NCBI GenBank assembly: GCA_963422265.1
Contig: OY729416.1
Location: forward strand, 672,001 to 736,000
DNA: 64,000 bases
From: Thermodesulfobacteriota bacterium
GTDB lineage: Bacteria; Desulfobacterota_D; UBA1144; Nemesobacterales; UBA2774
Direction of reading: 5' to 3'
The notes under the pieces were generated by a model. The model searched no databases and was not told where the DNA came from. It was given only the letters and a program-made list of their open reading frames with translations. Every line of letters starts with the position of its first letter. The first letter of the stretch is position 1. Of the stretch, positions 17,364 through 36,886 are shown piece by piece. The position numbers were made by a program, and so were the translations under genes.

Positions 17364-17405
17364 TTGTTGAATTCAGACCATACGCCTGAATGGCGCAAAA
17401 ACTAT

Positions 17406-18266
17406 ATGGGCAGACTCGACAGACTCCTAAATAAAGCGGATGACTTCAAAGAAGCGGGACGTTTTGAAGAGGCGATAAAAGAACTCAGCCAGGCAATAGA
17501 GATAGCGCCTGATGATCCAGATGTTTATTTATCGTTTGCTCTGACCTATGACGCCATGGAAAATTTTCAAACGTCGGTTTATTACTTCAAAAAAGCAGTT
17601 GACTTAAACCCGGAGGATCCATATACATGGAGCCAGCTTGGCATTACCCTTTCAAGAATGGGAAGGCACTCAGAATCCATACAGGCTTTCGATGAGGCTT
17701 TGACCATAGACCCCGAATGTATAACCGCTAAATGGCACACAGCTCTTATCCTCAGATCTCTCGGACTTTACGAAGACGCCCTCAGGAACTTCAAAGAATG
17801 TACTGAACTCAGTTCAGATTTTGACTACGTAAAGGACGAAATATATTATCAGATCGGATTGTGCTACTTTGACATGGGATGGACTAGAGAAGCGCTTAGG
17901 GAATTCAGGAAACACATAACGTTATATCCTAAAGACGCTTGGGCGCTCCTATCAATAGGCAATTGCTACTTTGATCTTGGCTGGATAGATGAATCAGCAG
18001 CACAGTTCAAAGAAGTAATAAGAAACGATCCCGAATTTATACCCGCTTATAATGCTTTAGCCATATCGCTAGCGGAAAAAGGATGGTACGACGAAGCGCT
18101 TGACGTATTAAGAACGGCGCTTCTAATCTCTCCCGAAGATGAATCTATAAAGGGTAGCATCGATTATGTCGAGTCCCTAAAAGATGACGACGGAGCTAAA
18201 GGAATAATACTAAGCCTAATACTAAAACTAATTAAGCATAGAAAAGATTCTTGCGGGTCTTCTTAA
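17406..18266 (+). CDS. Tetratricopeptide repeat protein
   Basis: About 7 TPR units (A..LDP, W..LG, YY.IG.CY); ATG 17406 preferred because the TTG at 17364 directly abuts the -10 box. Confidence 0.88.
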   Translation: MGRLDRLLNKADDFKEAGRFEEAIKELSQAIEIAPDDPDVYLSFALTYDAMENFQTSVYYFKKAVDLNPEDPYTWSQLGITLSRMGRHSESIQAFDEALTIDPECITAKWHTALILRSLGLYEDALRNFKECTELSSDFDYVKDEIYYQIGLCYFDMGWTREALREFRKHITLYPKDAWALLSIGNCYFDLGWIDESAAQFKEVIRNDPEFIPAYNALAISLAEKGWYDEALDVLRTALLISPEDESIKGSIDYVESLKDDDGAKGIILSLILKLIKHRKDSCGSS

Positions 18267-23381: not shown

Positions 23382-24182
23382 ATGAGTAGAGTTCTGTTAC
23401 TAGTCTTTATAGCTTTTGGGGTTATTGGGGGTTGTGGAGTAGGTAATATCCGCTCGGATAAAGAAAAAGTTAGAACTCCGATATACAGTTACAGAATTAT
23501 CAACGCCTATAACCACGATGACAGGGCTTTCACTCAGGGATTAGCCTTTGATAACGGCACTTTTTATGAAAGCACCGGACTACACGGTAAATCAACCATA
23601 AGGAAGGTTGACTTTAGAACGGGAAAAGTGCTTAAATCCTACAAACTGCCCAACAAGTATTTCGGTGAGGGAATAGCAATTGTGGGTAACGAGATAATAC
23701 AAATTACCTGGAAGTCAAAAATCGGATTTGTATATGACAAAAATACGTTTAACCACCTAAAAACCTTTCACTATAACTCTCAGGGGTGGGGTCTCACCTA
23801 TGACGGCAATTACTTAATTATGAGCGACGGGAGCGAGACTCTGCGCTTCTTGCACCCTAAGACTTTCAATTTAGTCAGGAAACTAAACGTGCATGACGAC
23901 AACGGAACCGTTAAAAAATTAAACGAGCTTGAATACGTCCCACGCGCCAATGGAGGAGAAATTTTAGCCAATATTTGGCAATCTGACAGTATAGCTAGAA
24001 TAGACCCCGTGAACGGACGCGTTAAGGGATGGATAGACATTAGTAACCTGCTAAACGAAGATGATGTTAAAAAACCGGCGGACGGACCAAACGGAATAGC
24101 TTATGACTCTGGAAATAAGCGGCTATTTGTTACCGGAAAATTCTGGCCTAAAGTCTTTGAGATTGAGTTGGTTTTAGATTAG
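23382..24182 (+). CDS. Glutaminyl-peptide cyclotransferase (plant/bacterial beta-propeller type), probable lipoprotein
   Basis: HDDRAFTQGL, ESTGLHG, FGEGI, GWGLT, MSDGS, LNELE, NGIAYD, VTGKFW; lipobox IGGC. Confidence 0.92.
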   Translation: MSRVLLLVFIAFGVIGGCGVGNIRSDKEKVRTPIYSYRIINAYNHDDRAFTQGLAFDNGTFYESTGLHGKSTIRKVDFRTGKVLKSYKLPNKYFGEGIAIVGNEIIQITWKSKIGFVYDKNTFNHLKTFHYNSQGWGLTYDGNYLIMSDGSETLRFLHPKTFNLVRKLNVHDDNGTVKKLNELEYVPRANGGEILANIWQSDSIARIDPVNGRVKGWIDISNLLNEDDVKKPADGPNGIAYDSGNKRLFVTGKFWPKVFEIELVLD

Positions 24183-25068
24183 ATATTCTCTCAAGCGCGA
24201 GTAGCAAAGCCTGAGTGCCCTTACGCCCATGTCCCTGAGCTTTTGTAGCGATGTAAAGTTGATGCACTAATGACAGTCCGGGTAGGACAATACCCATCCT
24301 TTGGGACTCTTTAAGGGCAATTCCCATATCCTTAATAAAATGCTCAACGTAAAAACCCGGTCTGAAGTCCCTACTTACGATTCTAGGCGCCAGATTATCC
24401 AGCATCCAGCAGGCGGCAGCCCCTTTGCTAATGGAGCTAAGCATAGTGTTCACGTCTAGTCCTGCTCTATAAGCGTAAAGCAAGGTCTCACACGTGCCTA
24501 TCATAATCCCGGTTGCCATTATCTGATTGCACATTTTGGCGTGTTGTCCCTTCCCAGCTTTTCCTTGATGCACTATATTCTTTCCCATAAGCCTAAGCAA
24601 AGGCATAATTTCTCGAATCGCTCCCTTATCACCCCCGATCATTATAGAGAGCGTCCCTGCCCTAGCACCAATATCGCCACCCGAAACGGGCGCGTCAATG
24701 GCGGCTACCCTAAGATTTTTAGCGTAATTGTAAATCTCCTCGGCAAGAGATGGTTCAGTCGTCGTCATATCAACCAATGTGCTTCCCTCTTTAACGCCTT
24801 CAAACAAACCATTCTTTTCAAAATAGACCTCTCGGACATCTTTCGGGAAACCAATTATTGTAAATATAACGTTAGACCTTTCAGCTACCTGCTTCGGAGA
24901 CTTTGCCCATTCAGCCCCTTTGTCAAGCAACTGCTTCGCCTTTTTTTTCGTACGATTATAAACAACCACTTTATAACCCTTGTCAGTTAAATGCACACAC
25001 ATGGCGTTTCCCATAACGCCCGTTCCAATCCAGCCTATATTCGTTCTTGACGTGCTCACCCTAATCAT
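24148..25068 (-). CDS. NAD(P)-dependent beta-hydroxyacid dehydrogenase (3-hydroxyisobutyrate/tartronate semialdehyde reductase family)
   Basis: GWIGTGVMG, DAPVSGGDIGA, AKMCNQI, FIKDMGIA. Confidence 0.9.
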   Translation of the reverse strand: MIRVSTSRTNIGWIGTGVMGNAMCVHLTDKGYKVVVYNRTKKKAKQLLDKGAEWAKSPKQVAERSNVIFTIIGFPKDVREVYFEKNGLFEGVKEGSTLVDMTTTEPSLAEEIYNYAKNLRVAAIDAPVSGGDIGARAGTLSIMIGGDKGAIREIMPLLRLMGKNIVHQGKAGKGQHAKMCNQIMATGIMIGTCETLLYAYRAGLDVNTMLSSISKGAAACWMLDNLAPRIVSRDFRPGFYVEHFIKDMGIALKESQRMGIVLPGLSLVHQLYIATKAQGHGRKGTQALLLALERISNLKPTQSQRL

Positions 25069-27981: not shown

Positions 27982-28055
27982 GTCCCCGTAGCTCAGCAGG
28001 ATAGAGCACAGGATTCCTAATCCTGGGGTCAGAGGTTCGAATCCTCTCGGGGACG
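27982..28055 (+). tRNA. tRNA-Arg (anticodon CCT), CCA not encoded
   Basis: Acceptor GTCCCCG/CGGGGAC, D-arm GCTC/GAGC, anticodon arm CAGGA-TTCCTAA-TCCTG, T-arm AGAGG-TTCGAAT-CCTCT. Confidence 0.97.
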
Positions 28056-28065
28056 CAGTTTCTTT

Positions 28066-28983
28066 ATGGATCAGATACATATAATTTTATTTTACAAATT
28101 CACCGACATAGCCAACCCTGAGGAGTTTGCCAAGTCGCACTTGAGTTTCTGTAAGGGAGAAGAGCTAGTAGGCAAAGTGCTAGTAGCAAACGAGGGCATC
28201 AACGGCTCGCTCTCAGGTTCTAAAGAGCAGGTTGGCAAATATAAAAGATACCTGACGGGAATAGAACAATTCTCGGACGTAGTTTTTAGAGAGGAGACTT
28301 GCTCGTTTCATCCATTTAAGAAAATGGTAGTCCGCGTTAAAAATGAAATAATAAGAATGGAGCAAGAACTAGATTTAACTAAAAGAGGAAAATACATAAC
28401 TCCTGAAGAATTACTTGAGCTTTATGAGACCGATGAAGACTTCATAATCCTAGATGCGCGAAATAGATATGAATCGGAGGTAGGAAGGTTCAAGAACGCT
28501 ATTACCCCTGACATAGAAACCTTTAGAGAATTTCCGGAAGCACTTAAATCGTTTAGCAAAGTAAAGGACAAAAAAATTGTCACCTACTGCACAGGTGGAA
28601 TAAGGTGTGAAAAAGCTACCGCATACATGTTAAAAGAAGGTTTTACAAATGTTTATCAGCTTAAAGGCGGTATTATAAACTTTTGCCAGAAACATCATAA
28701 CACAGTTTGGAATGGAAAATGCTTTGTATTTGATCAAAGACTAATCTCAGACGTCGATCCAGAAAGTGGCTCAATCACAACATGCGTTTCTTGCAACGAG
28801 AGTTGCGACAAGTATCGGAACTGTAAACACGTTGCCTGCGACAATCTGATAATACTATGTGATCTTTGCACTCACAGACTGAATGGATGCTGTTCTCAGG
28901 CTTGCGCTGAAGAATACAGCTCTCATGTAACTAAAAAATCACAAGAAAGACAAGCCCATCATCTTTTAAGAGAAGTTAAGTAG
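28066..28983 (+). CDS. trhO: Rhodanese-domain tRNA U34 hydroxylase (UPF0176/YceA family)
   Basis: LFYKF, EGINGSLSG, LDARNRYE..VGRF, YCTGGIRCEKA, QLKGGI, GKCFVFDQR, Cys-rich C-terminus. Confidence 0.9.
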   Translation: MDQIHIILFYKFTDIANPEEFAKSHLSFCKGEELVGKVLVANEGINGSLSGSKEQVGKYKRYLTGIEQFSDVVFREETCSFHPFKKMVVRVKNEIIRMEQELDLTKRGKYITPEELLELYETDEDFIILDARNRYESEVGRFKNAITPDIETFREFPEALKSFSKVKDKKIVTYCTGGIRCEKATAYMLKEGFTNVYQLKGGIINFCQKHHNTVWNGKCFVFDQRLISDVDPESGSITTCVSCNESCDKYRNCKHVACDNLIILCDLCTHRLNGCCSQACAEEYSSHVTKKSQERQAHHLLREVK

Positions 28984-29065
28984 AACCAAGAAGAGCGCTA
29001 GATTCCTCGGCTATGCGCAAGTAATGATAATAAGCAGTGGCATACCCTTAGGTTAGATGTCATAA

Positions 29066-32000
29066 TCACTCTACCGTTAGTTTTGCCTTCTTGGCTTTGG
29101 ACTTCTTAGCAATAAACTTTTTAAGTTCCCTTCCATCCGTTTTAAGAAGCTGCTTGAGGCGTGACGCGTTTACCTCAGCAACAATAATATCGCCTACTTC
29201 CATGTGAACGTTCCCATAAATTTGAAGAGCCTGCATACCCTTGGTCTGTTTCTGGTTGTCCTCAGTGGGGCTTACGTAATGGACTGAGATAGCCTTATAC
29301 CTATGAATCAGGAACAAATGTATCAAAGCCATCAATCTCTTCTGGCGATATTTAGCGTCAAACGTATTTTGATCCCTTACGGAAATTGTGGGTTTACCCG
29401 TGCGGTCATGGATCGTAGTGAAGACAACATCCGCTATCTTTTTCTCTTCTTCGTCATAAACCCCTAGTTCAAGGATATCCGAACCAGCGGTATGAGGCCT
29501 TAGCCGAACGTGGAAATATCCAGGGAAATTATTATGAGCCGTCCATAACTCTAGCCACTGCTCTAAAAGTTTAGGTGGCACCTCAGTCTCCACCAAGTGC
29601 TGGACCTGAGTAGAACCCTTACCCATAGCCTTAGTGGTAGCGGTGCGACCCGAAGAAGCAGAAAGGGCGCTATCCAGACGTGGACCACCAACCAAGGTCT
29701 GCGGCGTTTTGTAAGGCGAATCAAGCAGTCTGAACTTCCTCTGCAACCTAGCCAGCGCCAGCATACCATCTTGTCTAAGCGCAGTGGCGAACTCTTCGGT
29801 GGCAAGTCCGTCAATCTGGTGACCTCCGTAAGTAATAAAATCAAAAACGTAACCGAGCTTGCCGATCTCCTCGGGGAAAACTCTCATCTCATCCTCGGTC
29901 ATACCCGTAGTATCCCAGTTGAAGGATGGCGACAAATTGTAAGCAAGCATCTTATCAGGATAGACAGCGTGAATAGCATTGGCGAACTGCCTTGCTTCTT
30001 CTAAATTAGCGGTCTTAGTCTCCATCCATATAAGATCGGCGTAGGGTGCTACTGCTAAGGACTTAGCAATCGCATATTCAATACCGCCTTTCACTTGATA
30101 GTAGCCCTCAGGGGTTCGGGCAAGTTCACAATCCCACGAAGCCTCAACCCCCATTGACCTAGCTTGTTCACGTGCATTGTGAAACGAAGTGTGAGCCGCC
30201 AGCTCAAACCATTCATCAATACTCATACTCAGCTTCCTGCCCTCTTCTATCTGAAATTCCATCTTGTCGGCAACCGCCTGCGCGAACGTCATAAGACCGG
30301 ACTCCACTTCCCATACCTCAACAAACTTTGACACCGCATTGTCAAGCGGCTTGGTAATACTCCTTTCCTGTCCATCTTTAAGTGCCTGAATACTTTCATC
30401 AATAATTAAAGTCAAGCCCACTTGATCAAACCATTTATAAGTCTCTCCATATTCAGAATCAGAAAGTTGATACAAGAGATGACCGTTGACGTCGGTTACA
30501 CCTTTATCAAAGAATCTTTTAAGTATCGCCAGATAACAATTCTTATAGCCAGGTATGTTAATATTTGTAGCTCCAAGGATGAATGGGTGGTCACGCTCGT
30601 CACCCCTTCCGTCAAGAAGGGTCGCCGCCTCGGCATCAGTTCTGGCAACGATAATCCCCGGGACCTTCATAATATCAAGCTGGAATCTAGCGGCGTTTAA
30701 TCTCTTTATTTGCTCGTCAACTGGGACAAGCACTTTACCCCCTTGGTGTCCACACTTTTTTGTGCCGGGCTTTTGATCCTCAATGTGATATCCAGTAACC
30801 CCAACTTCAACAAACCTTCGTATGAGATTCCTCACATGGGCATCTCCGCCATGTCCCGTATCAGCGTCAGCAATAATAAAAGGCCTGTAGTCATAGTGTG
30901 GGGTAGATTTTCTCTCCTTATCAGACATTCTTGACCTTAGAAACGTCTGGTTTTTATCAGCAGTAAGTAGAGCGCGCACTAAAACCGCCGCTTCATCGGG
31001 CACTTGGCTAAGCGGATAGCTCGCCAGATCTGAACCAGGGTCCTCCTGAACGGATCCCTTCGCCGATGTTGCCCATCCCCCCAGGTAGATAGCCTCAACC
31101 CCGATCCTTTTCATGACAACCGCCTGACCCGGAGAGTAAGGACCAAAACTAGTAACCTGCTTGCCCTGTGAAAAGAGAACTCTAAGACGTCTATAAAACT
31201 CCTCAGAATATCTTCTCGCTATAGGATAGTCGTTCTCAAGAGTGCCCCTCTGCTGCACAACTTGGCGGGCGGAGTAAAGACGTCTAATACCCTTAAACCG
31301 AGGCCTCGCAAACCATTCTTTTGTTGCTTGCACTTCTCTTTCAAATGAATCAAGCTCATCCTCATAAAAAGTATCAAAACCACCTTCAGGCATAAAGTCT
31401 AAATTCTCGGTAATTCTACTTCCATCCTTCTTAAACGCGTCCATATATTGCTTTATTCTTATTTTAGCAGTAGGCAGATCGTGGTTGTTTAAGTTAATAT
31501 TCAACAGGTCAATATACCAAGGCGTTTTAACATCATCCTGAACGTAAGTCTCTACTATTTCCCTCGCAATCGGCAACGTAGTAGGCTTGGAGTTATCATG
31601 AACATCTTTGTCCTTTGCTTTAAGAAGCTTGTCGTATTCCTCGGCTAAGAGCTTTTTGAAGAGTCCAACCGTGAACACGTCTTCCTTATTCACTTTCGTT
31701 TCTTTGTCAGCTTCTGTAAGCTTTGCGCCCTTATGTACCCACTCCCAGAGTATGCTCAGGCGAATCTCCCCTGTGGCAGCGTCTTCCATAAGATAGAGTA
31801 TATTATCGTCACCAAAGAAATCCGCTGGCTTAAGAGCCGCTGCCTGAAAGCCCTGGCCAAAGGCGTTACCATATTGAAGCGCCACGCTAATCAAATTCCT
31901 CGCTCCCCTAATTGTTCTTGGCGCCGTTTCGAGAAGCCTAAGTCCATCGGCGTCCTGATCAGTATAAGTGAGAATAGGGAAACTTCTTCCAAGCTGATTG

Positions 32001-33316
32001 TCGTCCCCAACCCTTTGCCACACAGGTCTTATGATGTGAACCATCTTCCAATGCGCTACCCACTTTCCACTGGCGCCCTCTTTCTGTTCCCTAACCGCCC
32101 CGGCGAGCGCTTTCTCCATACTACTCTTAACACCCTCTTCTGCACCTACTGGAATATTGGGCTCCATCCCACCCTGCCATAAAGCAAAGTTGCCGTTCAC
32201 GTCAGGGATATTCACAGCCCGTCTTGCGCGGTCCTCGTAATTCCTCATATAACCATAAGTCATGGTGATTGATTCTATATTGGGATTAACGAAATCTATA
32301 TCCCAAGCCATAGCGTCTGAGACACTGTTTATATAGTCCCACCTTCCCGTGTTGAATCCCACGAAATGCCTGCCTAAAGCCGCTCTGATCTCCATTAGTT
32401 GGAACGTCGCCTCAATCTGTTCTATCAACACATAAACCTTAATGGTGCCGACTGGAATATCGAGATGATCTTCTAAAGCGGAAATGAGCTGATTCCAGAA
32501 AGAGGCTTCCTCGGCCGTTTGAATCTTAGGCAGATACAACACTATAGAAGAACCCGTTTTATCAAGCGTCTGGTAGTTGTTCACTACGTAAAGTGCCAAG
32601 TCCGCTATTGAAGCCGAAAGCGCTAGACCATTCTCGTCCCGTATATGCCTATCGTCTAGGTGTAAACCGCGGGTGCGGAAAATTTTAGTGGTAAAATCAA
32701 GCTGTTTACGCCAGTCGCTTATTATCTCTTTATTGAAAAAACCCGTAGCCCATTTGTTCATCCCTTTAGATACCTGCTCGGCAATGTTCAAAAAAACAGG
32801 GTCTTTACTAATGGCTAGTTTTAGATTTCTCTGGTTATCAAGGGACATAGACGTAATTTGTCCCAGAGCGTCCTCACCATCAAACATCCATCCATCTGCG
32901 CCGGATAACAAAGCGTAGGCTACGTTACGTATGCTCTTTTCAACCGGCGAATTAGGCTTAGCAGCTGGTCCAGTTCCCTGCACCCATTGTCTCTGTAAAT
33001 CATGAGGAATTTCAGAACCGACAAACTTTCCATCCCTTGCATCTTGAACCACTATATTTGTACTCGGTATAAAGTCGTTAGGATCAAGGAATCTAATTCT
33101 CTCCCTGTTCCTAAACCTCTGCACCCTTCTGGCGTATCGTTTTTCCATAAGCACCTTCTGATCCTTATTAAAAACGGACAGTGCCTTGAGGGCATCAACA
33201 ACCTCGGGGGTATATATATCGGTATATTCACTTTCCAGACCATCTCTTATCTGTAAACCTCTTGGGACTGAAATAGTTTTTGATGCTTCATTAGATAATC
33301 TGCGAACGGTACTCAT
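29066..33316 (-). CDS. Bifunctional malate synthase / ICL2-type isocitrate lyase fusion
   Basis: aa 1-~640 malate synthase motifs ([48 protein letters not shown]); from ~aa 650 ICL motifs ([52 protein letters not shown]); ICL2-like C-terminal domain ([23 protein letters not shown]). Confidence 0.92.
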
Positions 33317-33397
33317 ATTCCCCTGCTCTCCTTAAAATATTGGGTTATTAATTTAATCGGCTTCTTACTTCGTAAAACTATAGAGAAATGACGCAAG

Positions 33398-33425
33398 ATT
33401 ATAATACAAGTTCTGGTTAAAGCAA
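33398..33425 (-). promoter_or_regulatory. Sigma70-type promoter of the MS-ICL fusion
   Basis: Minus-strand TTGCTT-N16-TATAAT, about 80 nt upstream of the ATG. Confidence 0.55.
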
Positions 33426-33482
33426 ATAAAATCTTAACATTACTCTGATTAAATATGGAAACTCGTTCCCCGGACCCCTTTT

Positions 33483-33510
33483 TAGATTCCTGTTCGGAAG
33501 TGGGAACGAC
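33483..33510 (+). repeat. Degenerate short palindromic repeat (GATTCC..GGAAYG type)
   Basis: TAGATTCCTGTTCGGAAGTGGGAACGAC, similar to 55793-55820 and the reverse of 14560-14588. Confidence 0.55.
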
Positions 33511-33705
33511 GATCTCCTCATATCATCCACCTTATAACTCCCACCCATTCAATCGTTTTGATGAAAGAGAGAAACTTGTATATCTACTTATAGGGGTCCA
33601 GAAACTCTGAAAAGCTATCCTCGAGAAGGTGAAAAATAAAGAGAATCTGAAACAAATTCAGGGTGGTTTAAGGGTATATTTAAATAGCTTTTACACAAGA
33701 AATGG

Positions 33706-35106
33706 CTAGCTTAGGTCTTCTTTTAGACTCTTAACTATTCCTTCCACCATTTTCTTTCCATCCCCGAAAAGCATAAGGGTATTGTCCGCAGCGAATAGAG
33801 GATTAGGAATACCAGCGAATCCTGGACTTAGACTTCGCTTGATCACGACAACCGTCTTTGAGTAATCTACATCTAAAATTGGCATCCCCGCTATTGGGCT
33901 CTGAGGATCCGTCCTTGCAACTGGGTTAACCACATCGTTCGCTCCAATAATAATAGTAACATCAACCTGCCTAAAGCCAGGGTTAATATCATCCATATCT
34001 TTAAGCCTGTCATAAGGAATATCAGCTTCTGCAAGAAGAACATTCATATGTCCAGGCATACGTCCCGCCACGGGATGCACACCGAACTCAACAATAGCGC
34101 CATGACCCTCTAGCAAGTCGAAAAGCTCTCTTACCGCGTGCTGCGCCTGAGCAACCGCCATTCCATAACCGGGGACTACGCATACCTTTTTAGCTCCCTC
34201 AAGAAGCATCGCAACCTCTTCGGGGGAAGTCGCTTTCACCTTGCCCTTATAAACGTCATCTGCTGAAGGTCCCCCTTCAACGGCGCCAAAAGTGCCGAAT
34301 AGGACATCAGTCAAAGAACGGTTCATCGCTTTACACATTATTATCGTTAATATGATTCCCGATGCTCCCACCAAAGTTCCCGCCACGATAAGCACAGTGT
34401 TATGAAAGACAAACCCCGTTGCGGCAGCGGCTAATCCAGAGAATGAATTTAAGAGAGCTATAACGACCGGCATATCCGCCCCGCCTATTGGAATCACAAA
34501 TAGAATTCCCAGTACGGAAGCAGCTATAACCATCAGCCAATACAATGTTGAAGATCCAGGATAAACCACCATAAAGTAGGCAAAAACCAGCGTTAAAAGT
34601 GCTAGAATGATTTTGACTATTTGATCTCCGGGATAGCGGACTGATCCCTCATCCGCGAGACCCTGAAGCTTGCCGAATGCGACAAGACTTCCCCAGAACG
34701 TAACCGCACCTATGAGCCCAGAAACAAACGTAGCAATAGAAGACTGAGGGTTCACCGATTCAGGACCTATTAGGATGGACGTTTCAAGTAATGCAGCCCC
34801 TGCAACTAAGACGGATGCTATTCCACCGAACCCGTTATACAAGGCGACTAGCTGAGGCATTGCGGTCATTTGAATCCTGATAGCCAAAGCGGATCCTATT
34901 CCACCCCCAACTATGATCCCAGCGAATATTATCCAGTAACTGACGATATTCTTATGAAGCAAAGTTACCAAGACGGCTAAGAGCATTCCCAGAGCGCCGA
35001 GCAGGTTTCCCCTGACTGCCGTTCTAGGATGGGAAAGCCCCTTGAGGCCAAATATAAACAAAGCCGCAGCTATTAAATAGATGATGTTGACGAGCTCAGA
35101 AGACAT
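33706..35106 (-). CDS. pntB: NAD(P) transhydrogenase subunit beta
   Basis: MTAMPQLVA, PIGGADMPVVI, VPGYGMAVAQAQH, HPVAGRMPGHMNVLLAEA, GANDVVNP. Confidence 0.97.
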   Translation of the reverse strand: MSSELVNIIYLIAAALFIFGLKGLSHPRTAVRGNLLGALGMLLAVLVTLLHKNIVSYWIIFAGIIVGGGIGSALAIRIQMTAMPQLVALYNGFGGIASVLVAGAALLETSILIGPESVNPQSSIATFVSGLIGAVTFWGSLVAFGKLQGLADEGSVRYPGDQIVKIILALLTLVFAYFMVVYPGSSTLYWLMVIAASVLGILFVIPIGGADMPVVIALLNSFSGLAAAATGFVFHNTVLIVAGTLVGASGIILTIIMCKAMNRSLTDVLFGTFGAVEGGPSADDVYKGKVKATSPEEVAMLLEGAKKVCVVPGYGMAVAQAQHAVRELFDLLEGHGAIVEFGVHPVAGRMPGHMNVLLAEADIPYDRLKDMDDINPGFRQVDVTIIIGANDVVNPVARTDPQSPIAGMPILDVDYSKTVVVIKRSLSPGFAGIPNPLFAADNTLMLFGDGKKMVEGIVKSLKEDLS

Positions 35107-35108
35107 AT

Positions 35109-35390
35109 TTAATCCTTCCTTTTGAACATCTCTAACATTCGGTTGGTCACCATAAATCCACCCACAACATTAATTGTCGCAAGAGCAACTGCAAGAAATC
35201 CAAGCACGGTAGTAAGCAACGTGACCTGAGTCCCCGCTGATAGTATTGCCCCTATTAGAATAATTCCTGATATAGCGTTTGAGCCCGACATTAAAGGGGT
35301 ATGGAGCGTAGGAGGAACCTTAGTTATTACCTCAAAACCCACAAAAGCAGCTAGAACAAATATGGTAAACGCCATTGCAAAGCTATCCAT
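35109..35390 (-). CDS. pntAb: NAD(P) transhydrogenase subunit alpha, membrane part
   Basis: KVPPTLHTPLMSGSNAISG, INVVGGFMVTNRMLEMF. Confidence 0.95.
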   Translation of the reverse strand: MDSFAMAFTIFVLAAFVGFEVITKVPPTLHTPLMSGSNAISGIILIGAILSAGTQVTLLTTVLGFLAVALATINVVGGFMVTNRMLEMFKRKD

Positions 35391-35420
35391 TTTGTAGCCC
35401 TCCCGAATTTAGTCCTCTTC

Positions 35421-36569
35421 CTATAATCGCAAACTTTCCCTTACCCGATCGTTGACTACTTTGCCGTCGTCAGTAATAAGAGTTTCCCTTAGTATTTCAT
35501 CCTCTAAATCTATGTAGAGCTTTTCATCTTTAACCATTAAAAGAAGAAGATTTGCAATATTCTTGGAATACATCTGACTCGCATGATAAGGAACGCTTGA
35601 CGGAACGTTTTGCGGACCTATGACAGTTACTCCGTCTTTCCTAATAGTCTTACCCGCTTCCGTAAATTCACAATTACCGCCGCTCTCAGCCGCAAGATCT
35701 ACTATTACGGATCCCTGACCCATACCTGCAACCATCTCCTTAGTAACCAGAATCGGCGCTTTCCTGCCTGGAATTGCCGCTGTAGTTATAACGGCATCGC
35801 TTTCAGCAATAACCTTAGCCATGAGATCCTGCTGCTTTTTGTAAAACTCTTCATCCATCTCTTTTGCGTAACCACCCTCGTCTTCAGAGTCCCCTGCTTC
35901 AAGCTCAAGCTCTACGAATTTCGCCCCCAAGCTCTGCACCTGCTCTTTGACGGCAGGACGAACGTCATAAGCCGAGACTACGGCTCCTAGACGATTGCAT
36001 GTAGCTATCGCCTGCAGTCCCGCCACCCCAGCACCAACAACAAAAACACGAGCTGGTGTGATCGTTCCGGCGGCGGTCATCATCATCGGAAACATTCTTG
36101 CAAGGGATTGCGCCGCTATCAGAGCAGCTTTGTAGCCTGCAATGTTAGCCTGTGAAGAAAGAACATCCATGCTCTGGGCTCGCGTGATACGCGGAACAAG
36201 CTCCAGCGCAAATGCCTTAACCCCTTTTAATGCTAGGGCATTTACCGCCTGCTTATTAGTCAAAGCATCTAAAAGTCCTATTAATATCTTACCTTTCCCA
36301 AGCTTCTTTAGATCCTCAGCGTCACTATCGGGATTGCAACCTACTACCCTTACTTGCAAGAGCACGTCCGCCTTCGCAAATACTTCATCGCGGTCGGAAA
36401 TAACCGCTCCTTGCTCTTTATACATCTCATCAGTAAAGCCCGCTTCTAATCCTGCACCCGACTCTACGCGCACGGTGAAGCCCGCATTACTAAGCGCAGG
36501 TAGTCCACTAGGAATTAATGCCACCCGTCTTTCCCCGGCAAACGTTTCTTTTAAGATTCCAACGATCAT
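35421..36569 (-). CDS. pntAa: NAD(P) transhydrogenase subunit alpha, domain I
   Basis: GERRVA, PRITRAQSMDVLSSQ, GAGVAGLQA, TTAAIPGRKAP, DLAAESGGNC; start placed at MIVGILKE (upstream TTG at 36596 is possible). Confidence 0.95.
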   Translation of the reverse strand: MIVGILKETFAGERRVALIPSGLPALSNAGFTVRVESGAGLEAGFTDEMYKEQGAVISDRDEVFAKADVLLQVRVVGCNPDSDAEDLKKLGKGKILIGLLDALTNKQAVNALALKGVKAFALELVPRITRAQSMDVLSSQANIAGYKAALIAAQSLARMFPMMMTAAGTITPARVFVVGAGVAGLQAIATCNRLGAVVSAYDVRPAVKEQVQSLGAKFVELELEAGDSEDEGGYAKEMDEEFYKKQQDLMAKVIAESDAVITTAAIPGRKAPILVTKEMVAGMGQGSVIVDLAAESGGNCEFTEAGKTIRKDGVTVIGPQNVPSSVPYHASQMYSKNIANLLLLMVKDEKLYIDLEDEILRETLITDDGKVVNDRVRESLRL

Positions 36570-36886
36570 ATTATTGCTTCGACCACCATTCTCCAATTTT
36601 TACATTCCATCTTTACCCTCTTTACATTCCCTTCTTCCCCTTCTTCCCTTTTTCTGTTACCAACAAATAGTTATATCAGTATCTATACCTGTTAGCTTTT
36701 AATAATTCAAGACTATATATCAAATTTGCTTACACATTATATGAAAAGCTATCAAAGATTAGAAATTTTATTCATTAATGAAAACTAGTCAAGTTAAAGC
36801 AAATAAGATTTGCTAAACACTTCCAATGCAAAATTTTTATGATATGATACCCACCTCTAAAAATAGATTTCAATAGGGTTTATATT

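Follow-up and report, generated by a model that had tools for sequence, protein, structure and literature searches.

The described proteins closest to the subject of this report are the isocitrate lyase ICL2 of Mycobacterium tuberculosis (Mtb), malate synthase A (MSA), and the recorded fusions of malate synthase (MS) with isocitrate lyase (ICL). Mtb ICL2 carries a GNAT-like C-terminal domain that binds acetyl-CoA and propionyl-CoA, with a large domain movement (PMC6788997, PMC13102942), and acetyl-CoA acting through this domain raises the catalytic efficiency of the lyase about 50-fold (PMC6788997). Here, we propose that one gene in the DNA of an uncultured environmental bacterium (a host unlike the actinobacterial one of Mtb ICL2), at 29066..33316 on the minus strand of the window, probably encodes a single-chain glyoxylate shunt enzyme that arose by the in-frame joining of adjacent MS and ICL2 genes. 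The window is the whole stretch of 64,000 nt that was analysed (Thermodesulfobacteriota bacterium, contig OY729416.1), and all coordinates refer to its position 1. This proposal is based on the identity of the domains, the integrity of the catalytic motifs, conservation throughout the family and the descent of the fusion from two adjacent genes, each of which is directly established.

Fusions of the two shunt enzymes were described by Kondrashov et al. (2006; PMC1630690), who count the MS/ICL of Anaeromyxobacter dehalogenans as one of three independent fusions and place an Anaeromyxobacter ICL with mycobacterial ICL2 and the eukaryote-type ICLs. A fusion survey of 2016 tabulates the SEED ICL/MS fusion fig|404589.10.peg.3099 (PMC4921024). 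The original prediction, made from the letters of this DNA alone, had mentioned fused genes in a few bacteria, and these two sources agree with it. Like the window gene, that of Anaeromyxobacter is a bacterial one-gene fusion of both enzymes, and it likely shares the family, the order of the halves and the C-terminal domain, a comparison that goes by published description. Neither paper describes an acyl-CoA domain or any biochemistry (PMC1630690, PMC4921024).

Among eukaryotes, the fusions of Euglena gracilis and Acanthamoeba castellanii also hold both domains on one chain in the order MS then ICL (PMC1630690, PMC8219788, PMC13632647; see also PMC13632651) but, unlike the window protein, are eukaryotic and mitochondrial. 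The nematode fusion differs from it in having the order ICL-MS and a proteobacterial-type ICL. Both orders had been correctly given in the original prediction (PMC1630690). In a paper of 2021 (PMC8219788), MS/ICL fusions are said to have been "reported only from" Euglena and Acanthamoeba, and recent ICL2 papers restrict Group III ICLs to mycobacteria. In the literature searched, where subscription-only papers could be missed, our search turned up no biochemical work on any MS/ICL fusion from bacteria, only the mentions of 2006 and 2016.

The two halves of the chain

The gene is, just as had been predicted, one uninterrupted open reading frame (ORF) of 1416 residues plus stop, with an ATG start, an AGGAG-like ribosome-binding site about 8 nt upstream of it, and a stop-free translation. 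By our own arithmetic, with stops making up about 6% of random triplets at 43% G+C, the chance of such an open frame is below 1e-30, so that its length is far beyond chance; the G+C of the fused gene is the same as that of the window. From the N-terminus, the chain consists of an MS half (residues 1-640; 31397..33316), a linker of 16 residues (641-656; 31349..31396), an ICL2 catalytic domain (657-1222; 29651..31348), an interdomain segment (1223-1240; 29597..29650), a C-terminal acyl-CoA-binding domain by homology (1241-1405; 29102..29596) and a Lys-rich tail delimited by the family alignment (1406-1416; 29069..29101), all on the minus strand. The order MS, linker, ICL2 with KKCGH, and ICL2 C-terminal domain had been read from the sequence beforehand, and matches in Pfam, NCBIfam and the PDB bear it out.

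The second half belongs to the curated family TIGR01346 (isocitrate lyase), reaching 444 bits where the cutoff is 275.9, and Pfam ICL (PF00463) scores 417 bits there. In a PDB search with the whole protein, residues 656-1405 match Mtb ICL2 (6edw) at 1138.6 bits. When the ICL2 half is aligned by itself to the same structure, there is no gap over 749 residues (1139.8 bits), and a residue of the window protein carries the Mtb number plus 640. This colinear alignment (residues 657-1405) spans the Mtb catalytic loop 213-217, the helical insert 278-428, the interdomain segment 583-600 and the C-terminal domain 601-766. The KKCGH motif of the catalytic loop lies at residues 853-857 (30746-30760), exactly where it had been predicted, and is kept in all 36 related ICL2 loci described below; the insert of 151 residues occupies 918-1068 (30113-30565). 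Hence two of the features by which ICL2, or Group III, is defined in PMC13102942, the helical insert (Mtb 278-428) and a linked GNAT-like domain (Mtb 583-766), are present.

The last 170 or so residues had been likened to domain IV of mycobacterial ICL2, with a role as an activator that binds acetyl-CoA or propionyl-CoA. The likeness holds, since residues 1241-1405 correspond to Mtb residues 601-765 in 6edw and 8g8k, a structure of the ICL2 C-terminal domain by itself, is matched with 173.1 bits by the last 161 residues aligned (1245-1405). The role agrees with that reported for the Mtb enzyme (PMC6788997). Placing the named Mtb residues by hand on the printed 6edw alignment, we find that the loop contacting the catalytic domain, QRAGSEVL (Mtb 635-642), is HTAGSDIL in the window protein and that the hairpin NQEV (Mtb 731-734) is HMEV. 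In an alignment of the fused proteins, AGS(E/D)(L/I)L in the loop and E(V/I)G in the hairpin are retained family-wide. On this evidence the mechanistically important loops named in PMC13102942 are largely retained.

The N-terminal half was assigned from Pfam and NCBIfam models, alignment to known structures, an AF2 model and a Foldseek search. Pfam MS_TIM-barrel matches residues 212-441 (157.5 bits) and MS_C residues 506-598 (35.8 bits), and with the ICL match the profile scan proposed in the original prediction thus recovered both enzymes. Residues 30-542 match the MSA structures 3cux and 3cuz in a PDB search (about 155 bits), with 27-28% identity to Escherichia coli AceB (3cuz) and Bacillus anthracis 3cux. 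In the HMMER alignment R214 (32675-32677), E299 (32420-32422), D327 (32336-32338) and D512 (31781-31783) fall on E. coli MSA R166, E250, D278 and D447, respectively. In E. coli MSA, R166 stabilises the enolate and E250 and D278 are the Mg ligands, which by alignment makes R214 the catalytic Arg and E299 and D327 the metal residues. All four positions, together with R216, are invariant in the 81 family sequences aligned (81/81). Asp447, to which D512 corresponds as the catalytic Asp, is the catalytic base of E. coli MSA (PMC3112382).

An AF2 model of residues 1-656, built on a 47-row alignment, has a mean pLDDT of 85.7 and a pTM of 0.88, with pLDDT below 50 in the first 18 residues, in the loop 492-513 that holds D512, and in linker residues 644-656. 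Its top Foldseek match is E. coli MSA 3cuz (E 4.2e-33; TM 0.88 by target length and 0.72 by query length; 28% identity). The model thus predicts a complete A-type fold, with TIM barrel and C-terminal plug, in which the catalytic residues of MSA (Asp and Arg) and both of its metal ligands are conserved, and which is about 110 residues longer than E. coli AceB.

Fused, adjacent and lone forms

How widespread is this arrangement? A word-indexed search of proteins of 778-2478 residues, grouped into 90%-identity clusters, returned 191 clusters at E <1e-10. The 120 listed (the query among them, and at least 119 others) are all 1366-1428 residues long, 67-83% identical, and share the same four Pfam domains of ICL and malate synthase. 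Their source names include Thermodesulfobacteriota, Deltaproteobacteria, "bacterium HR37", Bythopirellula and Aeoliella (Planctomycetes), Acidobacteriota and Holophagae. Since the architecture occurs in over 100 database clusters that bear at least 7 phylum labels, and since a bacterial precedent dates from 2006, the novelty that the original prediction implied for the three-part architecture was overstated.

A scan of one genome per species, aligned over the MS part only, gave at least 600 pattern matches, of which 566 encode a relative; the best 80 were kept as loci and numbered with the prefix L. A fused single ORF occurs in 19 of the 80 (L001-L008, L012, L020, L024, L026, L027, L030, L031, L034, L038, L046 and L048), so that homologues running across the linker, as had been asked for, are found both here and in the at least 119 further clusters. 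At another 17 loci a separate ICL2 gene lies directly downstream on the same strand (L009, L010, L013-L019, L021, L022, L039, L045, L053, L059, L064 and L075). The remaining 44 have an MS without an ICL-like ORF on either strand of the fetched flanks (up to 6 kb on each side, with <2.5 kb downstream in 7 of the 44); they are mostly Bacteroidota and include cultured Spirosoma arboris, Daejeonella rubra and Cyclobacterium. A lone MS of about 640 residues is seen at L029, L032, L033, L035-L037, L040-L044, L047 and other Bacteroidota and Balneolota loci. In contrast to canonical MSA, then, the window subfamily forms its own clade, whose members occur fused to ICL2, adjacent to it, or without it.

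The ICL2 C-terminal domain is present in all 35 assessable loci with a fused or adjacent ICL (L008 is truncated by a contig end). When residues 1200-1416 were searched against shorter proteins, 7700 of 8000 scored clusters had E <1e-5, and each of the 120 matches listed covers at least 79% of the query at 62-76% identity. By our own count 59 of these 120 are 739-776 residues long, and the sources listed include Acidobacteria, Dadabacteria, Gammaproteobacteria (named "isocitrate lyase ICL2"), Saccharimonadales and Ignavibacteria. A separate observation, outside the window, is a set of giant proteins of 1950-4828 residues (P0244, P0245, P0247-P0250, P0256, P0265 and P0362), each with an MS domain of the window subfamily (29-50% identity) and ICL-family domains in either order, and with no ICL2 C-terminal domain. 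Some add PEPCK, a class-V aminotransferase, TPI and GAPDH, or HEAT repeats, and most start with a signal-peptide-like hydrophobic stretch.

Separate trees of each half, as the original prediction had suggested, were made with quick IQ-TREE runs; they are unrooted and carry SH-aLRT support only. In the MS tree (81 rows) the window falls in a seven-row, all-fused clade with genomes labelled Candidatus Dadabacteria, its nearest relatives, at 99% support. The same clades come out of the 37-row tree built on the ICL catalytic domain, again with 99% support for that of the window, and the two halves therefore travel together. By minimum count the fused label changes at least 7 times on the MS tree, where well-supported branches force 1 change, and 5 times on the ICL tree, where they force 2. 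We therefore reckon with at least two events, each either of fusion or of fission.

The sequence at the junction points to how the two genes came together. At the separate-gene loci, MS ends a few residues past a conserved ...ITENLD with a TAA, TAG or TGA stop, an AGGAG-like site stands before or after the stop in several of them, and ICL2 then begins with ATG at M(D/S)xF.xEV. These stops, spacers and start codons map exactly onto the linker position of the window protein. In 14 rows of the family, NLD and RLY stand 33-39 residues apart. At L018, L019, L021 and L022 both genes even lie in one frame with a single TAG between them, one substitution from a fused frame. An alternative genetic code or readthrough was considered for these four loci and rejected: the ATG follows the stop, and a ribosome-binding site precedes it in L018, L019 and L022. 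The linker is thus best read, from this alignment, as a translated former intergenic spacer.

Mean pairwise identities among the 19 fused proteins, L008 left out, differ strongly from part to part: 0.75 for malate synthase, 0.30 for the linker (0 of 16 columns invariant), 0.80 for the ICL core, 0.51 for the helical insert, 0.93 for the interdomain segment (12 of 18 columns invariant) and 0.61 for the C-terminal domain. The linker is also acidic, as had been noted for a stretch of 15 residues that we place at 642-656 (31349-31393), and is predicted to be disordered from its pLDDT. Such poor conservation speaks against a built channel and in favour of a flexible tether. The interdomain segment (residues 1223-1240) stands at the other extreme: no part of the fused proteins is better conserved, and it is near-identical to that of Mtb ICL2. 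The Mtb ICL2 papers call this segment a flexible linker; its identity of 0.93 and its closeness to Mtb suggest a role beyond tethering. At the end of the chain, basic tails like that of the window protein are confined to its close relatives, being seen in L001-L007 and L030, and other fused proteins are without them.

Proposed enzyme and competing readings

In light of these findings, how might the chain work? An MS gene followed by an ICL2 gene on one strand would have been joined in frame across a short spacer. By analogy with Mtb ICL2, the ICL2-type C-terminal part would form a tetrameric core that converts isocitrate to succinate and glyoxylate, and the C-terminal domain would bind acetyl-CoA or propionyl-CoA and so switch the lyase to its active state. 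The N-terminal MS of 640 residues, held on the roughly 16-residue disordered acidic linker, would condense glyoxylate with acetyl-CoA to malate. Fusion would set a 1:1 ratio of the enzymes and hold the consumer of glyoxylate beside its producer. It is from sequence that we infer both activities, acyl-CoA activation, the tetramer, channelling and any kinetic benefit. The idea in the original prediction that acetyl-CoA would serve both as the substrate of MS and as the activator of ICL, with possible channelling, is reasonable in this respect and fits the conserved catalytic and regulatory elements.

Several observations weigh against the proposed enzyme. The score of TIGR01344, the MSA equivalog, is 236.4 bits against a cutoff of 594.5, for which reason we class the MS half as a divergent A-like clade and not as a strict equivalog. 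Its length points the same way: 640 residues, compared with about 530 for isoform A (PMC3112382) and a median of 641, stop to stop, for the MS of unfused relatives. Two of the four latch residues between insert and C-terminal domain are kept by our hand mapping (E385 as E and R699 as R) and two are changed (E387 to R and R608 to P), one point at which the window protein departs from Mtb ICL2 within the lyase half, and resting-state control may therefore differ. With 17 of the 36 loci that hold both halves unfused, the fusion is dispensable for the pathway, and with an unconserved linker a structured channel is without support. No second ICL or MS was found among the scanned ORFs of at least 200 residues in the window, and the literature searched contained no activity, binding or oligomer data for any bacterial member. 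An AF2 model of residues 1-1200 (18-row alignment), made to test for a fixed orientation of one half to the other, was unusable, with a mean pLDDT of 56.6 and a pTM of 0.38, and supports no conclusion either way.

The strongest competing explanation is that the fusion is neutral, or merely fixes stoichiometry, the protein behaving like two separate enzymes that do not channel glyoxylate. We regard this as a serious possibility, at somewhat less than even chances. It is what one would expect from near-equal numbers of fused and separate-adjacent loci (19 and 17 of 36), from a label that changes at least twice on well-supported branches (with a minimum of 5 over the ICL tree), from the four loci that are one in-frame TAG short of a fused frame, and from a linker that is the least conserved part of the protein. 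Against it stands the constancy of the fused state across whole clades, namely the seven rows that include the window and the three rows of Holophagae/Thermoanaerobaculia (four with L020 in the ICL tree). Moreover, independent MS/ICL fusions in nematodes and in Euglena and Acanthamoeba hint at a recurring advantage (PMC1630690, PMC8219788).

A second alternative concerns the lyase half. The C-terminal domain might serve dimerisation or scaffolding only, without sensing acyl-CoA, or the lyase might act mainly on methylisocitrate, so that the protein would not be a self-regulating shunt. The two changed latch residues speak for this, as do the lower identity of the C-terminal domain (0.61, compared with 0.75-0.80 for the catalytic parts) and the methylisocitrate lyase activity that Mtb ICL2 also has once activated (PMC6788997). 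We consider it unlikely nonetheless, given that the domain is found in 35 of 35 assessable loci with a fused or adjacent ICL, that the family retains AGS(E/D)(L/I)L in the loop as well as E(V/I)G in the hairpin, and that a physical link to MS makes sense only with a lyase that produces glyoxylate.

The last alternative, that sequencing or assembly created the single frame through a lost stop or a frameshift between two genes, can be set aside as highly improbable. Relatives do have separate genes, spaced by only a few bases up to a few tens, so that one error could indeed yield a fused frame, but the same fused frame, linker length and similar sequence recur in the independent assemblies of the six nearest relatives (L001-L006), at least 119 further clusters are fused, and the window junction has neither a stop-codon remnant nor an in-frame start preceded by a ribosome-binding site. 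An internal start at Met642, for separate translation of the ICL2 half, was also weighed, and inspection of the junction sequence found nothing recognisable as a ribosome-binding site ahead of this codon. Separate translation from Met642 is therefore not suggested.

The single-chain shunt enzyme that we favour can be extended into a more speculative proposal. The protein would be a feed-forward-gated tetramer of about 630 kDa, in which acetyl-CoA bound at the C-terminal domains switches on glyoxylate production beside four tethered MS sites that use the same acetyl-CoA, so that free glyoxylate would never accumulate, with the fused form performing better than separate genes. The environmental MS-ICL2 module would then be the evolutionary home of Group III ICLs and may be the source of both mycobacterial ICL2 and the eukaryotic MS-ICL. 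Taken as a whole, we hold this extension to be doubtful.

Genomic setting and meaning for the family

The fused gene is directly preceded, on its own strand, by the genes for pyridine nucleotide transhydrogenase, pntAA, pntAB and pntB (33706-36596, minus strand). The 389 bp between pntB and the fused gene (33317..33705) presumably contain its promoter; a TATAAT was seen there by eye at 33403-33398, and the promoter scan did not call it. That scan, over 28900-33800, gave 7 promoter-like sites against a shuffle mean of 7.7, and a terminator scan of the same interval gave 2 terminator-like sites against a shuffle mean of 4.2, so that none stands above chance. There is no riboswitch ahead of the fused gene by an Rfam scan of the whole window, which returned a single tRNA (27982-28055, plus strand; RF00005, 69.5 bits).

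This tRNA lies downstream of the fused gene between two genes on the opposite strand, one of the rhodanese family and one for a UvrD-like helicase-nuclease. L001-L006 have the rhodanese-family neighbour as well, and L002 also has the pnt genes. The rest of the window is housekeeping in character (recN, proA, glnE, priA, mutL, dprA, eno, leuCD and rpoN). Two further ORFs were noted in passing. One, for a beta-hydroxyacid dehydrogenase (24148-25068, minus strand), shares its strand with the fused gene at a distance of 4 kb, and its best NCBIfam match is tartronate semialdehyde reductase, a family of glyoxylate catabolism, at a score below the cutoff (TIGR01505; 246.6 bits against 340.75). The other (17364-18266, plus strand) matches the MamA model below threshold, at 107.3 bits against a cutoff of 200, and is most likely a generic TPR-repeat protein.

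The window gene on its own is an ordinary member of the MS-ICL2 family. The fusion is genuine, and among uncultured bacteria it is common. Databases already contain the large family to which it belongs, brief mentions of which exist in print, and two research communities seem unaware of it. Our findings thus correct two printed claims, that ICL2 occurs only in mycobacteria and that MS/ICL fusions occur only in Euglena and Acanthamoeba. Whereas Mtb ICL2 is free-standing, the complete ICL2 architecture, present in many bacterial phyla, is typically fused to, or encoded just after, a special MS, which in the window protein is the N-terminal 640 residues. This provides enzymes from non-pathogens in which the allostery of ICL2 can be studied. 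In addition, close relatives that are fused and unfused amount to a natural experiment on what fusion contributes to a two-step pathway with a toxic intermediate.

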